This document shows positions 8,172 to 14,600 of a stretch of 64,000 nucleotides of DNA, one piece after another; position 1 is the stretch's first letter; each line of letters starts with the position of its first letter. The translations under genes were made by a program, and so were the position numbers. The notes below the pieces were generated by a model. It saw only the letters and a program-made list of their open reading frames with translations. It did no database searches and was not told the origin of the DNA. The DNA lies in contig CALXTS010000001.1 in NCBI GenBank assembly GCA_944391465.1, positions 26,441 through 90,440 of the forward strand. The letters run 5' to 3'. Origin of the DNA: an uncultured Alphaproteobacteria bacterium. GTDB lineage: Bacteria; Pseudomonadota; Alphaproteobacteria; RF32; CAG-239.

Positions 8172-9527
8172 ATGTCTAATCCATATGCTCGTATTTTTTA
8201 CAATGATTTTAAAGAACGTTTTTTGAAACCGGAAAATAAGTCCGATGATTTTGTCGTACCTGCTAAATTTCAGCGTTTTTTAGATAATATGAATAAGATT
8301 TTTCAAAAATCAGAAGATGACAAACAATTTAATATTAATCCTAAAGGGTATAAAATAGAGGCTAAGGATTTTGCTGATTTTGTGCTTAGCTTAGGAGCAA
8401 CAATGTTTGCAAGCGCCGGAAAGATTCCGAATTTAAATGAAAAAGACAGTCGCTCTCCAGAAATAATAGAGTTTTTTGAAAGTGTGAAGAATTTTTGCAT
8501 TCAGAATTCTACCAAGTTAAGCGAAGATTTTGATTATGAATTTTTTAAATTAAATTCTTCAACGGGAAAACTTGAATTGATGGAAGATTTGCCGAATGTT
8601 CAGAAAAAAGGAATTTTTTTCTTTGGCGTAAATCGTAGTAGTTTTAATAATATGGATGATGTGAATTGTTTTTTTAAGAAAGCAACCAAAGATATTTTTG
8701 ATAATGAGGCTTTTTTGGGTTCGGATATTTATTCTGTGGCTTTGCCAAAGTGCTTTCCTGAAGAAATTGCAATGTCAACTATTCTTAAAACAATTGAAAA
8801 TTCTGAATATATTAACAGTTATGACCGATTTTTTGTTGAGGAATATTGGAGCTCGTATATCGGTAAAGATTTGGAATTTGATGAAAATGGCTTGGTTATT
8901 GGCGGAAAGCCTTATTCTCAGGAAGTTTTGCAAGAAAATTTAAAAAATTTAAAAGTTTTTGGTTATTGTGCTGGGGCGGCTAATGCTCATAGATGTCTTA
9001 AGGCTCTTAAAAATATTGCGGGACAATTGTATGATGAAAAGTTTTTGGCAAAGGCTTGGAAAAATATTAAAGTTGTTAGCTATGCATTTCCTCTTGAGCA
9101 AGAAAAAATTGATTATAACTGCGTTTCCGTTATGAGTAATGACAAAAATCCCGATAATCCAGAAACTGTTATTTTAACGCTTTTTCCGAGCCAGTATCAT
9201 AAATTGTGCATTAAAGATGAAAATGCTGTTAAAATTACTGATGAAGAAAACTGTAAGTATGTTGCTTTAGAATTACCTAAGGAAATTTCAAAGATTGATA
9301 CGCAAGGCAGGCGCTTTTCTTGTGCGATTGATAACAGGAATGGTCATCGTTTGCAAAATGCAACAGCTAAAAATGATACTTCACATAACTTTGAGGCGGT
9401 TTGCTATATTTTAAAATGTTGCATGAATAATGAGCCCGTAAATAATGGAAAATTATGTAGAATTGCTCAGAATTTGTCTGCTGCGGATTTATGCAGTTAT
9501 AAATTGGGAAATCAGAAGTCATCGTAA
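8172..9527 (+). CDS. Hypothetical protein, 451 aa, with no recognisable domain. The C-terminus is Cys/His-rich.
   Basis: A long clean ORF in the same orientation as flanking genes. There is no signal peptide. Confidence 0.55.
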   Translation: MSNPYARIFYNDFKERFLKPENKSDDFVVPAKFQRFLDNMNKIFQKSEDDKQFNINPKGYKIEAKDFADFVLSLGATMFASAGKIPNLNEKDSRSPEIIEFFESVKNFCIQNSTKLSEDFDYEFFKLNSSTGKLELMEDLPNVQKKGIFFFGVNRSSFNNMDDVNCFFKKATKDIFDNEAFLGSDIYSVALPKCFPEEIAMSTILKTIENSEYINSYDRFFVEEYWSSYIGKDLEFDENGLVIGGKPYSQEVLQENLKNLKVFGYCAGAANAHRCLKALKNIAGQLYDEKFLAKAWKNIKVVSYAFPLEQEKIDYNCVSVMSNDKNPDNPETVILTLFPSQYHKLCIKDENAVKITDEENCKYVALELPKEISKIDTQGRRFSCAIDNRNGHRLQNATAKNDTSHNFEAVCYILKCCMNNEPVNNGKLCRIAQNLSAADLCSYKLGNQKSS

Positions 9528-9665
9528 AAAGATTCTTATAAAAGCTGTTTTGATAAAAAAACGGCTTTTGTTTTTTTGATATTGACAAAAACATAAAAAA
9601 GTTTAGCTTCTGATTAAAATAAGCTACTATTTATATCTTATTGTTTAATCTTAAAATTTATTGTT

Positions 9666-10154
9666 ATGTCTTTGTTTATGCTTCTTATTGTTGTTGTTTA
9701 TATAATAACGGCAATAATACTGTATCGTTCAGTGACTTCAGGTTTTTTTTATTGTGACAGCGCGGCCATATATAATGGTATTCTTTCGGTTATCTTTTTT
9801 ATCAAATTGATTTTGAAAGGTTTTGATGAAAATATTTTATGGATTTCTTTGATTATCGGAAGTATGTTTTGTGTTGTGGTTTATACGCTGATGCGTTTAA
9901 ATGTCGGTTATAAAGTAACTTCTCATTCCGGGCATTGTTGTAATAGCGGAGATGACAATGTTTCTGATTATTTGAGCTATCGGGAAGAGGAGTTGCTTAA
10001 GACAAATGCTGATTTGATTGAACGATTGGAGCGTTCAACCGGTGGAGTTAACACGCCTCATGATATCTATGATTCTGACGGGCAGGTTGACTTTAACAAG
10101 GTTGAGCAAAATAATGCGGATATGCAGACAGAGTTAGATATGTCTCGAGATTAA
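9666..10154 (+). CDS. Hypothetical small membrane protein with three predicted TM helices and an acidic C-terminal tail.
   Basis: Hydrophobic N-terminal half (LLIVVVYIITAIILY; ILSVIFFIKLIL; ISLIIGSMFCVVVYTL). Confidence 0.5.
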   Translation: MSLFMLLIVVVYIITAIILYRSVTSGFFYCDSAAIYNGILSVIFFIKLILKGFDENILWISLIIGSMFCVVVYTLMRLNVGYKVTSHSGHCCNSGDDNVSDYLSYREEELLKTNADLIERLERSTGGVNTPHDIYDSDGQVDFNKVEQNNADMQTELDMSRD

Positions 10155-10173
10155 GTATCCGTATCGTATATGC

Positions 10174-10210
10174 AAAAAAGGTGTTCATTTGAACACCTTT
10201 TTGTTTTTTT
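10174..10210. terminator. Bidirectional rho-independent terminator between convergent genes.
   Basis: aaggtgttc / attt / gaacacctt flanked by an A-run and a T-run. Confidence 0.75.
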
Positions 10211-11528
10211 ACTTTTCATTGCTTTGTTTTTTGAGTTTCATTAAATCTTTGAGATTATTAATGTGTTTCTTTTGTAAGTGTTTGGGCGCATGATTAAATT
10301 TACTGAAAGTAGATAATTTGCCATGATTCTTTTTCAAAGCCATTTGTTTGGCACCTTCACCTTTATTACCAACGGCTTTAATATCTTTTATCAGCTTTTG
10401 TTGTGCGGCCTCACTTAGTTTTTCAGAACTGTTTAAGGCTTTGCTCAGTGAAGAGGAAAGACCGTATTCTTTATATATTACATAACTGTACGCCATTTTT
10501 TCTTTGCTAATATCTTGGGGAAGGCTGAAGATGCCTTTGGCTATTTGTTGCTCAATTTGCTGATAGAGTTTTTCTTTTTTTGTTTTTGAACTCAGAATTT
10601 CTATCGTATTGTCATAATAACGGTTCCAGATACTTTGTTTGGAAATTTCTTGTTCAGATGTTTTTGAGCTCGAAAGATTGCTGACTTTTTGCCAGTGAAC
10701 TTCAGGAGCATATGTCTGAACAGTGTCTTGTTTTTGTTCTGAAATATTTTCTTGATGGTTGCTTGTGGTGTTTTCAGAAGAACAACCCGATTTTATACCA
10801 AACACACTTCCCAAAAGCGTTAATGTTGTTAAAGCGGCTATTTTAACTTTGTTTCCAAATCGAAAACGATTTGATTGTGTTTTTGATGGTTGAGGTTGGT
10901 TTTGTATAGATGTGTTTTCTTTAATTAAGGTGCGAATTTTTTGTTTTGCCTCTTCTTCAGTTTCTTCTGCCGGATGACAGATAACGCTGATATAATTCAT
11001 TGTTGCTTGATAGTCTTCCGGTTTTAAAATAATTTTATCTTTAACTATAGCGTCGGCATAGGCAGAAGCCTCGTTTTTTAATCTTTTAATTTCTTTTTTG
11101 CGTGATTGTCTGAAAAACATCGTCAGCCATATCTTTTTATGTAAAGAACGGTATCTTTCTGATTTTTTACGGAGTTTGTTTGAGGATAAATATTTTACGT
11201 CTTTTGATTTTGGATTAATTTTTTCCCAAAAAGTTTTGTTTGCTTCTTCCAGGTATTGTTTTATATCAAAATCGGCTTTTTTTTGCAGACGGTTTAAAAG
11301 TTCATCTTTTTGAAAATTTCCGAATATATTAACATAATCTGCCCATATTTTAATATCTTCTGCGGAAATCAGAATTTTATTTTTGGCAAGTTTATCAAGC
11401 AACTCATCTGCTCGATTATTAATTTCTTCCATTTTTGCGTATGTTTTAATTGAGAAACTTTTACTTCTAAGTTTTTTATATTTAGAAATATCCTGACGTA
11501 ATGATTTTATTAATTTTGTTTTATCCAT
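10209..11528 (-). CDS. Hypothetical Lys-rich protein, 439 aa, with a single central TM segment and an anti-sigma-like bitopic topology.
   Basis: A long ORF with a central hydrophobic stretch (KIAALTTLTLLGSVFGI). No catalytic motif was recognised. Confidence 0.5.
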   Translation of the reverse strand: MDKTKLIKSLRQDISKYKKLRSKSFSIKTYAKMEEINNRADELLDKLAKNKILISAEDIKIWADYVNIFGNFQKDELLNRLQKKADFDIKQYLEEANKTFWEKINPKSKDVKYLSSNKLRKKSERYRSLHKKIWLTMFFRQSRKKEIKRLKNEASAYADAIVKDKIILKPEDYQATMNYISVICHPAEETEEEAKQKIRTLIKENTSIQNQPQPSKTQSNRFRFGNKVKIAALTTLTLLGSVFGIKSGCSSENTTSNHQENISEQKQDTVQTYAPEVHWQKVSNLSSSKTSEQEISKQSIWNRYYDNTIEILSSKTKKEKLYQQIEQQIAKGIFSLPQDISKEKMAYSYVIYKEYGLSSSLSKALNSSEKLSEAAQQKLIKDIKAVGNKGEGAKQMALKKNHGKLSTFSKFNHAPKHLQKKHINNLKDLMKLKKQSNEK

Positions 11529-11656
11529 TGTTTTGCCGTAATTTGTTTTAATTTTTTAATGTCATAGGGGGCTTGTTATAAATGCTTGAAAACTTTTTGT
11601 CAAGCGCTTTGTTGTTTGCGAGAAGCCTTGCGGAAATTACAAGGCTTCTCTATTTT

Positions 11657-11932
11657 TTATTTTTTGGGATATTGTTTTTTTATTGAGCTAATAAAATCTT
11701 TCCATACCGTTGTATGATTAACCATATCATGGTATATCATATCTAATTGTTCGGCGAGAGGAGGGTACGCTAATTCTCTGTTTTGCCGATATCCTAGCGT
11801 ATCTTCTCGCGGAGAGACCATGCAGATATCATGGTTTTCCAATTCGCTAAGTTCTAAGCTCATCTTGGTTGCTTTGGCTGCAAAAGATGCGTATTGTTGT
11901 GCCGTGTAAGGGTATTTTAAAAGATTATCCAT
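11657..11932 (-). CDS. Hypothetical 91-aa protein downstream of the tail-fibre gene. A tail-fibre assembly or chaperone role is possible.
   Basis: The ORF starts 12 nt after the tail-fibre stop on the same strand. Confidence 0.4.
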   Translation of the reverse strand: MDNLLKYPYTAQQYASFAAKATKMSLELSELENHDICMVSPREDTLGYRQNRELAYPPLAEQLDMIYHDMVNHTTVWKDFISSIKKQYPKK

Positions 11933-11944
11933 TTTTTATTCCTT

Positions 11945-13381
11945 TCATGCTTGTTCCGCTCCATATCCATAGGCTCGCCAGATAATGCCCCATTCGCCTT
12001 CTTCTGTTGAAACGCTGCGAGTGCGAAAGCCCGTTGTTGTTTGTAGAAATGTATTACCATAGTAGTCTAGTTGGTTTGTGTAACATCTTAATGTTGTTTG
12101 AATGTGGTAATTGGTATCTCGGTAAGGTTGTAGCAAATTTACCGGAAATTTACTTAATGAATTGTCTGTCCAAAAAGCATAACCACCTTGTTCAAGCCAA
12201 CCACTTTTATATCTGCGGTACCAGCTCTCTCCTTCGCTCCAACTTTCAACAACAAAATCTATTCCGGGCATGACGTTGCTCAAGTCTGTTTTTACGGCTT
12301 CTCCAACTTTTTGGTCTATCAAATTTTGAATGCTGGCAAATTGAGCTTCACTGACATTTTCAAATTTGTTGGCAATGACAATATAAAAATATAAACCATT
12401 GTTTTCTTTATTGCCAAAATATGGAAGTCTTACACTTTTGTTTTCTTCATCTACTACATAAAAACGACAGTAACTATTGCCACTTTCATCAGTGTTGGCT
12501 AAAAGTTCTGCGGTGTATTCTTCTTGCGTTTTGGCGTATTGAGCATATTCTTCATTATTAATTGATAAGGCCCTTAGCCGTAACATTTCTGTCCAGAAAT
12601 CAGGATAGCCGCTATCACATCCACTTATTAAATATCCTTCAGCGTAATTTGGATCATTTAACGGAAGTAGGCCTGCGTATGATGCCGGATGATCAAAACT
12701 AATTATACTGCCAATATGTAAAAAACGACTTTCTCTAGAGGCTTGTTGAGCCAGTTGAGCTTCTTCTTTAGCTTTTTCAAATGCATTTTGAGATTCCGTT
12801 GCCGAGGTTTGCGCTGATGTTGCGCTTGCTTGGGCATTTTGAGCTGCATTGAGTGTTTCACTGTGGTATGTGGTCATCAAATCATTAAATTCATCAATTT
12901 GAATTTTTGAATTGGTTAATCCGGTTCCATCATTATTCCAGATAATGGCTTTATTTGGAGAAGGTTGCGGAAATTCTTTTTTAAGTCCGGAATTATTTGA
13001 ATAGACCGGAAGCAAAAAAGAGCGATTAAGTGCTTCGGCAATTTGTTGGGTGCAAGCTATTTGATAATTAAATTCATAATTGAGTGCTTTACTTCTTATT
13101 TCTCCGCCTTCTTGAAAGTCACTGACGCGTTTGATGCTTAGTTCTCTGACAATTGAAATGACGGTATCTTTAGCCGGAGGAGTTCCAAATATAACACTGC
13201 CTCCGGTTTCTGATGTTGAAAACTCAATGCTGAATCCTTCATTGGTTTTTATATTGTCAATATAAACGCAAATATTACCGCTTTCAAAGATTAAAAACGG
13301 AAAGACAAACGTGGTTTGAAGACCATCTGCGATATAGTTGATGTGCGGAATGGTCTCATCAATTGTAATATTTTTTTCCAT
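11945..13381 (-). CDS. Phage T7 gp17-like tail fibre protein (N-terminal tail-attachment domain plus a coiled-coil shaft).
   Basis: The N-terminus (YIADGLQTTFVFPFLIF...VISIVRELSIKRVSDFQEGGEIRSKALNYEFNYQIACTQQIAEAL) aligns by eye with the T7 gp17 N-terminal domain (YQLDGSNRDFNIPFEYL...[37 protein letters not shown]). It is followed by a Q/A/S-rich heptad region, as in gp17. Confidence 0.65.
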   Translation of the reverse strand: MEKNITIDETIPHINYIADGLQTTFVFPFLIFESGNICVYIDNIKTNEGFSIEFSTSETGGSVIFGTPPAKDTVISIVRELSIKRVSDFQEGGEIRSKALNYEFNYQIACTQQIAEALNRSFLLPVYSNNSGLKKEFPQPSPNKAIIWNNDGTGLTNSKIQIDEFNDLMTTYHSETLNAAQNAQASATSAQTSATESQNAFEKAKEEAQLAQQASRESRFLHIGSIISFDHPASYAGLLPLNDPNYAEGYLISGCDSGYPDFWTEMLRLRALSINNEEYAQYAKTQEEYTAELLANTDESGNSYCRFYVVDEENKSVRLPYFGNKENNGLYFYIVIANKFENVSEAQFASIQNLIDQKVGEAVKTDLSNVMPGIDFVVESWSEGESWYRRYKSGWLEQGGYAFWTDNSLSKFPVNLLQPYRDTNYHIQTTLRCYTNQLDYYGNTFLQTTTGFRTRSVSTEEGEWGIIWRAYGYGAEQA

Positions 13382-13403
13382 GAGTGTTCCTTGTATTAAA
13401 TTG

Positions 13404-13440
13404 CAAAAAAAAACTCTTTTCTGTGCAGAAAAGAGTTTTA
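13404..13440 (-). terminator. Rho-independent terminator after hpnE on the minus strand.
   Basis: aaactcttttctg / tgc / cagaaaagagttt hairpin. The plus-strand A9 run becomes a T9 run on the minus strand. Confidence 0.8.
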
Positions 13441-13511
13441 AAATGGCAAAATTATCCCTTTGCCGAAATAATCTATAACAAATTAAATTGATAAAGTCAA
13501 GGAAAATATTC

Positions 13512-14600
13512 CTATTTTTGCTTTTTCTCTTTGGTTAAAGCCGTCTTTACGGCTCGTCTTGCCGAAAGGATAGCCGCCTCAATGGAACATGGGAAATCTT
13601 TCATTGTCCAGTCTCCGGCAATAAACATATTTCCATATTTTGTTTGTGCGTTTTCAGGGCGGAGAATATTGTTATATACATCTTGTGCGATGGTTGCGTT
13701 TTGGTGAATAATAACTTTATGTGGAGGTAAAAAAGCTGAATTTACTCCACGAAGGATATCTAGTTGTTTCCAAAGTCTTTCGGGGAGGGCTTTTATTTCT
13801 TCAACTGTCATGCGAGCATCAGAAATTGTGAATGAAACAATATCTTCATTAATAAATACCCAATCGGCTAATCCGTTTATTATTCCCATATAGCCGGCTA
13901 ATTTAGGTAAATTTATTTCTTGTGACGTGCGAAAATGAACGTTGATTATGCTGTTAAAAGTAAAATCGCGACTTTGAAATATTTTTGAATAAGCAGCTGC
14001 GTCTAAAGCAACAATAACAATATCATTTTTATCTAACTCCAATATTCCTTTATTGAAGTGTAAGGTTGCTATTTTTCCAAATTCTACACCTACACTTTCT
14101 AAGCGATGTCCGTATTTTATTTCATCTGCGTAGATAAGCATTGGATTAATTAATCTTTGTGTTAAATCATTTTTTGAAAAATAGACGCCGAGTTGGTGTT
14201 TGCTCCACGGAAAAAGTTTCCAGCAGATATTTTTTATCATTTTGCGGGGAATATCTTCGGCTTGAGTGTTGCACATTGATTTGAGTATTTGTCGATGGTA
14301 TTTGAAAATTTTGCTGGTAATGGTGTCTTTTTCTGCATCCCAAAAGTAGGTTTGGGACGGCCAGCGATGAACTCCGGTCAGAGCTGAAGCCATTCTGTTT
14401 CCTCGCAAAATTACATGTGTCGCATTATCTAAGCGGCACCCCATTTCTTTGTCATCATATGAATAACAGCGTCCTCCGGGACGATTGTTTGCTTCATAGA
14501 TAATAATTTTGCTTTGCGGGCGTTGTTTTCTTAGAAAACGTGAACACATCAATCCGGCAATTCCGGCTCCTATAATATGATATGTCGGTTGGTTTGGCAT
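13512..14600 (-). CDS. hpnE: Squalene-associated FAD-dependent desaturase (hydroxysqualene dehydroxylase) HpnE.
   Basis: An N-terminal dinucleotide-binding motif (HIIGAGIAGLMCS) and amine-oxidase-like architecture. It is the third gene after two squalene/phytoene-synthase paralogues. Confidence 0.7.
   Translation of the reverse strand: MPNQPTYHIIGAGIAGLMCSRFLRKQRPQSKIIIYEANNRPGGRCYSYDDKEMGCRLDNATHVILRGNRMASALTGVHRWPSQTYFWDAEKDTITSKIFKYHRQILKSMCNTQAEDIPRKMIKNICWKLFPWSKHQLGVYFSKNDLTQRLINPMLIYADEIKYGHRLESVGVEFGKIATLHFNKGILELDKNDIVIVALDAAAYSKIFQSRDFTFNSIINVHFRTSQEINLPKLAGYMGIINGLADWVFINEDIVSFTISDARMTVEEIKALPERLWKQLDILRGVNSAFLPPHKVIIHQNATIAQDVYNNILRPENAQTKYGNMFIAGDWTMKDFPCSIEAAILSARRAVKTALTKEKKQK

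Follow-up and report, generated by a model that had tools for sequence, protein, structure and literature searches.

We analyzed a 64,000-nt stretch of DNA (referred to here as the window) from an uncultured Alphaproteobacteria bacterium (GenBank contig CALXTS010000001.1), which carries on its minus strand a tail-fibre gene related to gp17 of phage T7, followed by a small open reading frame (ORF). Based on sequence comparisons with related bacteria, we propose, with a probability of roughly 0.6, that this two-gene cassette encodes the receptor-binding part of a domesticated podovirus-like particle, as a locus co-regulated with, and unlinked to, the other particle genes elsewhere in the chromosome. 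The particle is most probably similar to a gene transfer agent (GTA). We further infer that the window's own genome contains the gene cluster for such a particle, that the fibre docks on the cluster-encoded particle, and that the particle packages host DNA.

The fibre and its attachment domain

The fibre gene is complete (478 aa plus stop codon; positions 11945-13381, minus strand), and a 91-aa ORF (11657-11932, minus strand) lies 12 nt 3′ of it, as given in the preliminary description of this DNA. That description also held that the N-terminal domain aligns convincingly with gp17. For the single sequence this was overstated, since the check it had proposed, a Pfam search for PF03906 (Phage_T7_tail), gave only a sub-threshold match for the window protein alone (E 0.013; residues 14-114; 15.7 bits, compared to a gathering score of 25.2). 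The class assignment itself is right. PHROG tail and tail-fibre families match residues 6-127 (E 4e-13 to 1e-3), 16 of the 24 members of the fibre family match PF03906 at E < 0.01 (best E 6.8e-9), and the family profile, compared with PDB, finds the N-termini of the podovirus fibres/tailspikes Dpo31/Dpo36 (E 4e-19) and LME-1 orf22 (E 3e-14). The AlphaFold model of the protein (mean predicted local distance difference test [pLDDT] score of 74) has the fold of podovirus fibre anchors in solved tail complexes: Foldseek returned LME-1 (9efk_AE, E 1.1e-8) and Carin-1 (8ck1_B, E 5.6e-5), along with further anchor matches to Kp7, PhiM1, and T7 (7ey9/7boz) at E 1e-3 to 2e-2 with a probability of 1.0.

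Four parts can be distinguished along the protein, all encoded on the minus strand. Residues 1-160 (12902-13381) form the T7 gp17-class particle-attachment domain, i.e., the part predicted to dock at the adaptor/nozzle, as judged by profiles and fold; its pLDDT is ~74-87 at residues 11-80 and falls below 50 at residues 83-95 and 114-122, inside the domain. An A/Q-rich coiled-coil shaft follows (residues 161-218; 12728-12901), which the model renders as a single continuous long helix (residues 162-218), bearing out the shaft predicted earlier; its length and sequence vary among homologues. The middle domain (residues 219-340, FLHIGSII...YPDFW; 12362-12727; pLDDT 82-95) aligns with the phage tail "Collar"-type region of relatives, one of which matches Pfam Collar. 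Finally, residues 341-478 (11948-12361) comprise a helix and a C-terminal β-sandwich "foot" (IDFVVESW...WYRRYKSGWLEQGG). The fold of the C-terminal ~110 residues matches the C-termini of R1/R2 pyocin fibres (6ct8, 6cl6, 6cl5, and 6cxb) and five relatives match PF21882 (Gp53-like_C) in the foot region, suggesting that the foot is a probable receptor-binding domain (RBD) of the Gp53-like_C/R-pyocin class. With anchor, shaft, and receptor-binding foot all present, the window protein is a complete and true podovirus-type fibre by profile and fold.

Homology with the tail fibre or head spikes of the Rhodobacter capsulatus GTA (RcGTA) was also considered and rejected. DUF2793 (PF10983) has no match in the window protein at E ≤ 1 or in the 24-member family at E ≤ 0.01, there is no other sequence link, and the similarity is confined to the generic pyocin/gp53-like foot.

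Close homologues of the fibre were found at 100, 81, 77, and 69% identity, and many more at ~40%. A scan of one genome per species yielded 70 loci in about 65 species, nearly all of them gut or rumen metagenome-assembled genomes (MAGs) labeled "Alphaproteobacteria bacterium" from human, ruminant, and other guts, with two copies in some genomes. The cassette occupies many different chromosomal contexts across these species; in six homologue contexts, the fibre lies among housekeeping genes (dxs, recA, nrdD, and glycosyltransferases) with the small ORF after it and no phage genes near. In 26 of 65 loci (L012-L074; L numbers designate individual loci or contigs), GT2 glycosyltransferases lie at a distance of 2-8 kb from the fibre gene, and other surface-polysaccharide neighbours include a GalE-like epimerase, a DegT aminotransferase, ArnT/PMT_2, and GtrA, a neighbourhood that recalls the RcGTA fibre and spike genes beside exopolysaccharide and capsule genes. 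One locus (L006, 3187-6828) has a serine recombinase (Resolvase/Recombinase/Zn_ribbon_recom) and then a reverse transcriptase (RVT_1) ~3-7 kb upstream of the fibre, which were not seen in the other loci.

One reading offered by the preliminary description was that a podovirus prophage has degraded and left this gene as its last remnant, which would now be on its way to loss. The varying context between species would suit a remnant, as would the lack of other phage genes in the vicinity: the five ORFs nearest the cassette match no phage family in Pfam or PHROG, and profiles derived from related elements (portal, scaffold, capsid, adaptor, nozzle, and terminase) gave zero matches in the six-frame translation of the 64-kb window. 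These searches, which covered the targeted profiles and the five nearest ORFs and not each of the other window ORFs individually, uphold the earlier statement that the window is without capsid, terminase, and portal genes. The fibre itself nevertheless contradicts decay. The cassette ORFs are intact in about 65 species, and the ratio of nonsynonymous to synonymous substitution rates (dN/dS) is 0.04-0.17 for the anchor (first 160 residues), compared to 0.2-0.65 for the rest of the fibre, where dN is several-fold higher, i.e., the distal part evolves faster. The anchor retains 36 invariant columns among 16 homologues. In the nearest relative (L302), the cassette lies in the same hpnCDE context, and its fibre is 80.5% identical in amino acid sequence to that of the window (dN 0.14, with dS saturated), compared to 76% for the adjacent hpnE. 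The regulatory leader is likewise conserved, and the base composition of the cassette is the same as that of its surroundings. Thus, none of the signs of a remnant that were tested (relaxed selection, pseudogenization, and sporadic distribution) was found, and dN/dS together with the conservation of the fibre above hpnE rules out a decaying gene, leaving this reading largely refuted and very improbable. Instead, constraint on the fibre is strongest in its virion-docking domain, and "orphan" tail-fibre genes should not be dismissed as prophage debris.

A podovirus-like cluster in related bacteria

The most distant matches in the scan (L059, L075, L077, L079, and L080) come from free-living, Rhodospirillales-like bacteria, in which the fibre gene is embedded in a compact cluster with the order portal, scaffold, capsid, f47, adaptor, nozzle (Pfam Phage_nozzle), f172, fibre, f48, and TerL. 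The adaptor and nozzle, encoded there beside the homologous fibre, are the partners absent from the window. In L059, a homologue of the small ORF also follows the fibre, and the two proteins match those of the gut lineage at E 1e-28 and E 1e-63, respectively. More than 3,000 near-full-length nozzle proteins were found, nearly all 632-636 aa in length and mutually 50-60% identical. They are encoded on chromosomal contigs, some as long as 3 Mb, and the cluster family thus extends to Azospirillum, Magnetospirillum, and thousands of other Alphaproteobacteria. The cluster of Azospirillum soli (L084, JAGINQ010000007.1) has a host GGDEF/EAL gene inserted in it and no integrase or replication genes; two pectate-lyase-type spikes stand there in place of the fibre. 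Among the cluster copies in IMG/VR, the fibre is often located between f172 and f48/TerL, is displaced by several genes in L111 and L115, and is missing from L124, L125, L121, L100, and L103 as well as from L118, an element with 35% GC. A search with the L118 nozzle revealed numerous relatives that are 60-98% identical to it, a few of which are very prevalent, with 270-513 sequences per cluster.

At least four species (L165-174, L175, L176-179, and L180-181) carry a fibre-less cluster of ~10.5 kb, always at one and the same place in the chromosome. Its order is yhdP, a divergently oriented CI-like S24 repressor, two small ORFs, f48 (putative small terminase), TerL, a 95-aa ORF, Hydrolase_2 (a cell-wall hydrolase), holin, portal, Bbp19, scaffold, capsid, an 85-aa ORF, adaptor, nozzle, f172, and a 64-71-aa homologue of the small ORF of the cassette, followed by genes for an esterase and SBP and by mlaC, gltX, and cysS. 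The adaptor matches a PHROG tail protein (E 8e-54) and the holin a PHROG holin, and the two small early ORFs match no family. Cluster proteins are 39-81% identical and flanking host proteins 41-79%, and the same flanks (yhdP and esterase-SBP-mlaC-gltX-cysS) are kept in species whose nozzles are only ~60% identical. Such similar divergence of cluster and flanks is as vertical inheritance predicts.

With respect to the features by which a GTA is recognized, a head-tail-packaging-lysis cluster without integrase or replication genes was found in relatives only (L118, L124, L165-L181, and L295, all of them also fibre-less), the relatives' clusters show vertical inheritance at a conserved site, and unlinked co-regulated accessory loci are seen at the level of cis-elements (see below). 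The preliminary description had named an intact prophage elsewhere that accounts for the gene as grounds for giving up its view, and something of this kind did emerge in modified form, namely, a particle cluster that is non-mobile and vertically inherited and is not a prophage.

Instead of a GTA, the particle that uses the fibre could be a bacteriocin-like killer or a satellite that is defective but self-transmissible. The clusters do have a CI-like repressor and lysis genes, as in inducible elements, and internal-core proteins were not recognized in them. On the other hand, portal, terminase, and capsid are conserved, which indicates that DNA packaging is retained, and tailocins known so far have no heads. 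A satellite is further disfavored by the absence of integrase, replication, and partition genes and by a locus that is fixed across species. We consider both forms of this explanation unlikely and regard a GTA-like particle as the better account.

Two contigs, both truncated, provide partial and suggestive evidence that the cassette and the cluster belong together. Contig CAKQGY010000004.1 (L030) has the order fibre cassette, rpsU, lon, a pilin gene, lnt, a CI-like S24 repressor, and an orf1 homologue; the repressor homologue is ~7 kb from the cassette and 47% identical to that of L124, and the orf1 homologue is ~9 kb away at the edge of the fetched stretch. In L015, a repressor homologue lies at the locus edge, 9.4 kb 5′ of the fibre.

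The leader of cassettes and late operons

The fibre gene of the window is preceded by a compact series of regulatory signals, all on the minus strand. An operator-like palindrome (TAGGAATATTTTCCTTGAC; 13496-13514), the sole and exact match in the window, overlaps a −35 hexamer TTGACT (13495-13500) situated within the palindrome region, and the TAG of the operator doubles as the stop codon of the hpnE-like gene that lies upstream. The −10 box TATAGA (13472-13477) is 17 nt after the −35 hexamer, a spacing shared by the TATAAT-like boxes of other leaders. At the predicted 5′ end of the transcript is a hairpin, GGCAAA-GGGATAAT-TTTGCC (in full, GGCAAAGGGATAATTTTGCC; 13445-13464), followed by an intrinsic-terminator-like hairpin with a 14-bp stem and a T-run (AAAACTCTTTTCTG/CAGAAAAGAGTTTT; 13401-13439), which ends ~20 nt before the fibre ATG, and by a candidate ribosome-binding site AAGGAA (13387-13392). 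Rfam found only four tRNAs in the window, and the leader matches no known RNA family.

These signals recur across the gut lineage. The fibre leaders share a sigma-70-type promoter whose −35 box lies inside the palindrome TAGGAA-N5-TCCTTGAC and, right after the −10 box, an element with one of two forms: CACTT-GGGATAA-GTGTATC, or a hairpin stem with GTGTATC as its loop. In 2.13 Mb of related loci (both strands), the motif AGGAA-N4-7-[AT]TCCTTGAC has 38 occurrences, each of them upstream of a fibre gene (38/38); CACTTG-N4-7-AGTGTRTY occurs nine times in fibre leaders versus zero elsewhere in 2.1 Mb; and RGTNTATCY is 40-fold enriched in fibre leaders. RNAalifold, applied to 20 leaders (two of them from clusters), gave a 7-bp stem with compensatory changes in five pairs and an invariant TATC in the loop. 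A hairpin plus T-run is present within 220 nt upstream of the fibre in 55 of 55 gut-lineage loci (mostly <~100 nt from the ATG) versus none of six fibres embedded in clusters. In the L302 leader, the operator is identical to that of the window, and the terminator shows compensatory changes. The window hairpin aligns with both the CACTT-GGGATAA-GTGTATC element and the GTGTATC-loop hairpins of other fibre leaders and cluster late operons, and this alignment marks it as a diverged version of the late-leader element conserved elsewhere. Several leaders (L013, L016, L049, L069, L070, and others) also appear to have an outer helix (GTTAAC...GTTAAC, GATTAGC...GCTAATC, or GGTATAA...TTATACC) around the conserved inner hairpin and its U-run, with seemingly compensatory changes; a structure of this kind that sequesters the terminator could belong to a switch.

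The same leader precedes late operons of the particle clusters. A scan of IMG/VR for the 14-base leader motif gave 120 matches, mostly due to chance, of which L295 is the sole clean one: a complete fibre-less cluster lies directly downstream of the motif in the correct orientation. Its portal operon is preceded by the full leader, comprising TAGGAAAATAATCCTTGACA with an exact copy of the operator, TATAAG, the hairpin CCAGAAGTGTATCTGG, and a terminator. In fibre-less L124, the portal leader has the TCCTTGAC/−35 half of the motif and then the same hairpin and terminators. Upstream of f48-TerL (putative TerS/TerL) in L118, L165, L175, L176, and L180, the sequence CACTTGCTGG[TA]AGTG[TC][GA]TC (consensus CACTTGCTGGTAGTGTGTC) is followed by a terminator, and more terminators are found directly 5′ of other late genes inside clusters. 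Two further observations concern these regions. L118 contains two tandem ~70-nt units (12546-12660) right after the small ORF of the cluster, each with the hairpin CTCGGGTTTATCCCGAG (a GTNTATC loop variant), which may be further late leaders before short ORFs. A perfect 12-bp palindrome, ATTCCTAGGAAT, lies between the S24 repressor gene and orf1 in L176 (1504-1515) and L175 (1447-1458); it has the AGGAAT half-site of the fibre-leader operator, with the half-sites oppositely arranged.

Given these shared cis-elements, we infer that the fibre cassette is co-regulated with the cluster. The two genes would form a self-contained late transcription unit for the fibre and its small partner protein. 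Relief of the repressor would allow early cluster products to turn on late leaders, each comprising the TAGGAA-N5-TCCTTGAC/−10 promoter, a 5′ hairpin with a conserved loop, and a terminator that needs read-through, presumably by an antitermination mechanism. Since the unlinked cassette is under the same leader, the fibre would be made along with heads and tails. It would then trimerize via its coiled coil, dock at the adaptor-nozzle junction through the gp17-like N-domain, and bind a surface receptor, probably a glycan, on related cells by its pyocin-fibre-like foot, the particle being most likely a GTA-like vehicle freed by lysis. Together, TAGGAA-N5-TCCTTGAC, the hairpin, and the terminator provide a simple, testable signature for finding the loci of the element in a genome.

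The leader also bears on whether a particle is needed at all. A stand-alone domesticated fibre, such as an adhesin, a lectin-like bacteriocin, or a decoy consisting of the fibre and small protein only, would agree with the absence of phage structural genes within 10 kb of the cassette in all gut-lineage loci, with the glycosyltransferase or surface-polysaccharide genes near 26 of 65 cassettes, and with the lectin-like C-terminal foot. Yet it is the virion-docking domain, for which we know of no role outside a tail, that is most constrained; inspection of the sequence revealed no signal peptide or secretion gene; the leader is common to capsid and portal late operons; and fibre-less clusters exist in the same lineage. 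A fibre acting alone is therefore improbable in our view. The preliminary description, which had raised a domesticated fibre for host-cell adhesion or a tailocin-like function, was right in spirit about domestication, but the conserved docking domain and the leader shared with a fibre-less cluster disfavor both roles. Nor are there signs of a tailocin (sheath, tube, and baseplate without head genes), as no sheath, tube, or baseplate genes were seen near any cassette and the associated clusters encode capsid, portal, and terminase; likeness to R-pyocin fibres is confined to the C-terminal foot.

Several points weigh against a co-regulated locus of a GTA-like particle. No cluster was found in the 64-kb window, so that the link between cassette and cluster is one of lineage and a shared cis-element and not of the same genome, and the L030 stretch ends after the orf1 homologue, short of any full cluster. 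The leader hairpin of the window has diverged, with GGGATAA kept and GTGTATC lost. The repressor-operator assignment and antitermination are read from sequence architecture, and particle production, packaged content, and fibre incorporation are predicted from genes. Matches of the cluster holin to GTA_holin_3TM are weak, and no internal-core (ejection) proteins are recognizable in the clusters, which makes the function of the particle uncertain.

The partner ORF, the surroundings, and known systems

The 91-aa ORF downstream of the fibre has a conserved C-terminal half (residues 43-91) with the motif AYPPLAEQLDMIY...W..FI..IKKQYPK and matches PHROG 9114 (E 8e-12) and PHROG 1787, both families of unassigned function. 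It has no Pfam match and does not belong to the known chaperone families Caudo_TAP, DUF4376, or gp38-like, and its single-sequence AlphaFold model is of low confidence (pLDDT 64; two helices). The small ORF is located 0-25 nt downstream of the fibre in 39 of 65 non-redundant loci, with a DUF4376 protein in its place in 10 loci, and it occurs with several different C-terminal fibre domain types. The C-terminal half also has homologues in cyanomyophages and, within tail modules, in Methylophilales phage MEP301 and Pelagibacter phage HTVC010P. The earlier suggestion that this ORF could be a fibre chaperone is thus unproven: it is a conserved partner with homologues in phage tail modules, but a homologue also follows f172 in clusters without a fibre, which speaks against a chaperone dedicated to the RBD.

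Exchange with phages is evident at some cassettes. The distal fibre (E 7e-105) and the downstream DUF4376 gene (E 3e-72) of L057/L058 are near-identical to those of a gut metagenome myophage (L082/L083), though these cassettes carry a podovirus-type anchor. Judging from these alignments, this is recent modular exchange of an RBD and its partner gene across tail types. RBD swapping is usual for receptor-binding modules that target the same hosts.

Such near-identity implies ongoing exchange with phages, and it could be taken to mean that the cassette is a host-encoded fibre module serving superinfecting or helper podophages by host-range swapping, or interfering with their assembly, the more so as N-domains of this class are common in free podophages. 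Against this, a search of 50,697 phage genomes turned up no phage with a close relative of this N-domain (best identity about 27-30%), the nearest N-domains are in conserved chromosomal clusters, and the promoter is identical to the cluster late promoter. We regard a module for podophages as quite unlikely and favor the receptor-binding locus of a chromosomally encoded particle.

Around the cassette, squalene/hopanoid-type genes lie upstream (two SQS_PSY genes and an amine oxidase, hpnCDE-like), and the downstream ORFs have no Pfam or PHROG match, which agrees with the placement first described between hopanoid genes and hypothetical ORFs. Directly after the small ORF is a stem-loop without a T-run (GAGAAGCCTTG-N9-CAAGGCTTCTC; 11620-11650, minus strand), which, judging from its sequence, is the likely 3′ terminus of the cassette transcript, and a separate promoter (TTGACA-17-TATAAC) is predicted for the next gene. 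There are no meaningful direct or inverted repeats around the cassette and no adjoining tRNA, i.e., no mobile-element borders were seen. Three sizeable ORFs (451 aa on the plus strand, 162 aa on the plus strand, and 439 aa on the minus strand) are located beside the cassette at 8172-11528 and match neither Pfam nor PHROG. On contig L002, whose fibre is identical, the 451- and 439-aa ORFs likewise adjoin the cassette and a 162-aa gene is not called; none of the three is a recurrent neighbour family in the loci of other species. The GC skew of the window (1-64000) is positive almost throughout, its cumulative value climbing monotonically to 11.5, and the majority of window genes are on the plus strand, with the fibre cassette and hpn genes on the lagging-strand side. 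Skew and gene strand bias place the window within one replichore.

Compared to known systems, the fibre resembles T7 gp17 and other podovirus fibres (Legionella phage LME-1 orf22 and Klebsiella phage Dpo31/Dpo36) in the fold of its β-rich N-domain and helix, the part that in those fibres docks at the adaptor/nozzle junction, its trimeric coiled-coil shaft, and its distal receptor-binding domain. It differs in that sequence similarity to T7 is marginal, the gene is not beside adaptor and nozzle genes, the foot is of the R-pyocin/gp53 type and not the T7 tip, and the gene is chromosomal and under host-like selection.

A promoter, a structured 5′ element, and a terminator, repeated before late genes, constitute the architecture of lambdoid processive antitermination. 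The leaders described here share the promoter, 5′ structure, and intrinsic terminator before late genes, and the repetition of this arrangement at several late units, with lambdoid control (PR′-qut-tR′ with Q, nut/boxB with N, and the HK022 put RNA) and with GafYZ control of the Caulobacter GTA (PMC11150451). Unlike in those systems, no Q, N, or GafZ homologue was identified in the clusters, and read-through is deduced from the leader layout.

A parallel in gene layout is FpGTA of Faecalibacterium prausnitzii, which comprises two podovirus-like loci and was presented as the first podovirus-like GTA (PMC12946183). Both elements are GTA-like, come from gut bacteria, and have genes resembling those of short-tailed phages, with a head/packaging operon and a second operon that contains the tail fibre/receptor-binding protein. 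FpGTA, however, belongs to another phylum, and the likeness described here is one of layout; its lysis genes accompany the fibre, unlike those of the present element, which belong to the main cluster; and FpGTA particles with 8.5-9 kb of host DNA have been seen (PMC12946183), whereas the present element is described through its genes. Azospirillum, which carries a related cluster, is reported to release particles with ~10 kb of random host DNA (PMC3899980), and the cluster family could be their source. Our literature search on orphan fibres, RF32 GTAs, and alphaproteobacterial podovirus-like GTAs returned nothing relevant except FpGTA and the old Azospirillum particle reports, and within the searchable literature the alphaproteobacterial cluster did not appear to have been described. 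It is possible, although we put it at somewhat below even odds, that the clusters represent a large, apparently undescribed family of podovirus-derived GTAs that is vertically inherited in Rhodospirillales-like and gut Alphaproteobacteria and apparently governed by a CI-like repressor and an antitermination-type late leader, with fibres on relocating cassettes that swap RBDs with phages.

RcGTA offers a parallel for an unlinked fibre. Its tail fibre (rcc00171) and head spikes (rcc01079/01080) are encoded far from the head-tail cluster and co-regulated with it, and its receptor-binding genes are fast-evolving, exchanged with phages, and often beside polysaccharide-synthesis genes (PMC5026251); its fibre foot is related to R-pyocin/AP22 gp53 (PMC7296036). 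Polysaccharide neighbours, fast evolution, exchange with phages, and a pyocin/gp53-like foot are common to both systems, as would be an unlinked, co-regulated locus for receptor binding. On the other hand, RcGTA is siphovirus-like, with a DUF2793 N-terminus on its fibre that binds the "megatron" baseplate protein, whereas the anchor of the window fibre is of the podovirus type, and the RcGTA head-tail cluster is unrelated to the podovirus-like cluster found here. If our proposal is correct, the host-range determinant of the particle would reside on a detachable, phage-exchangeable cassette, a natural example of a domesticated virus that keeps its receptor-binding module evolvable by unlinking it, and gut bacteria would have one more way of exchanging genes. 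A second alphaproteobacterial GTA-like particle, short-tailed and evolutionarily independent of RcGTA, would then be present in a common group of Alphaproteobacteria from gut and rumen and in many Rhodospirillales that live freely.

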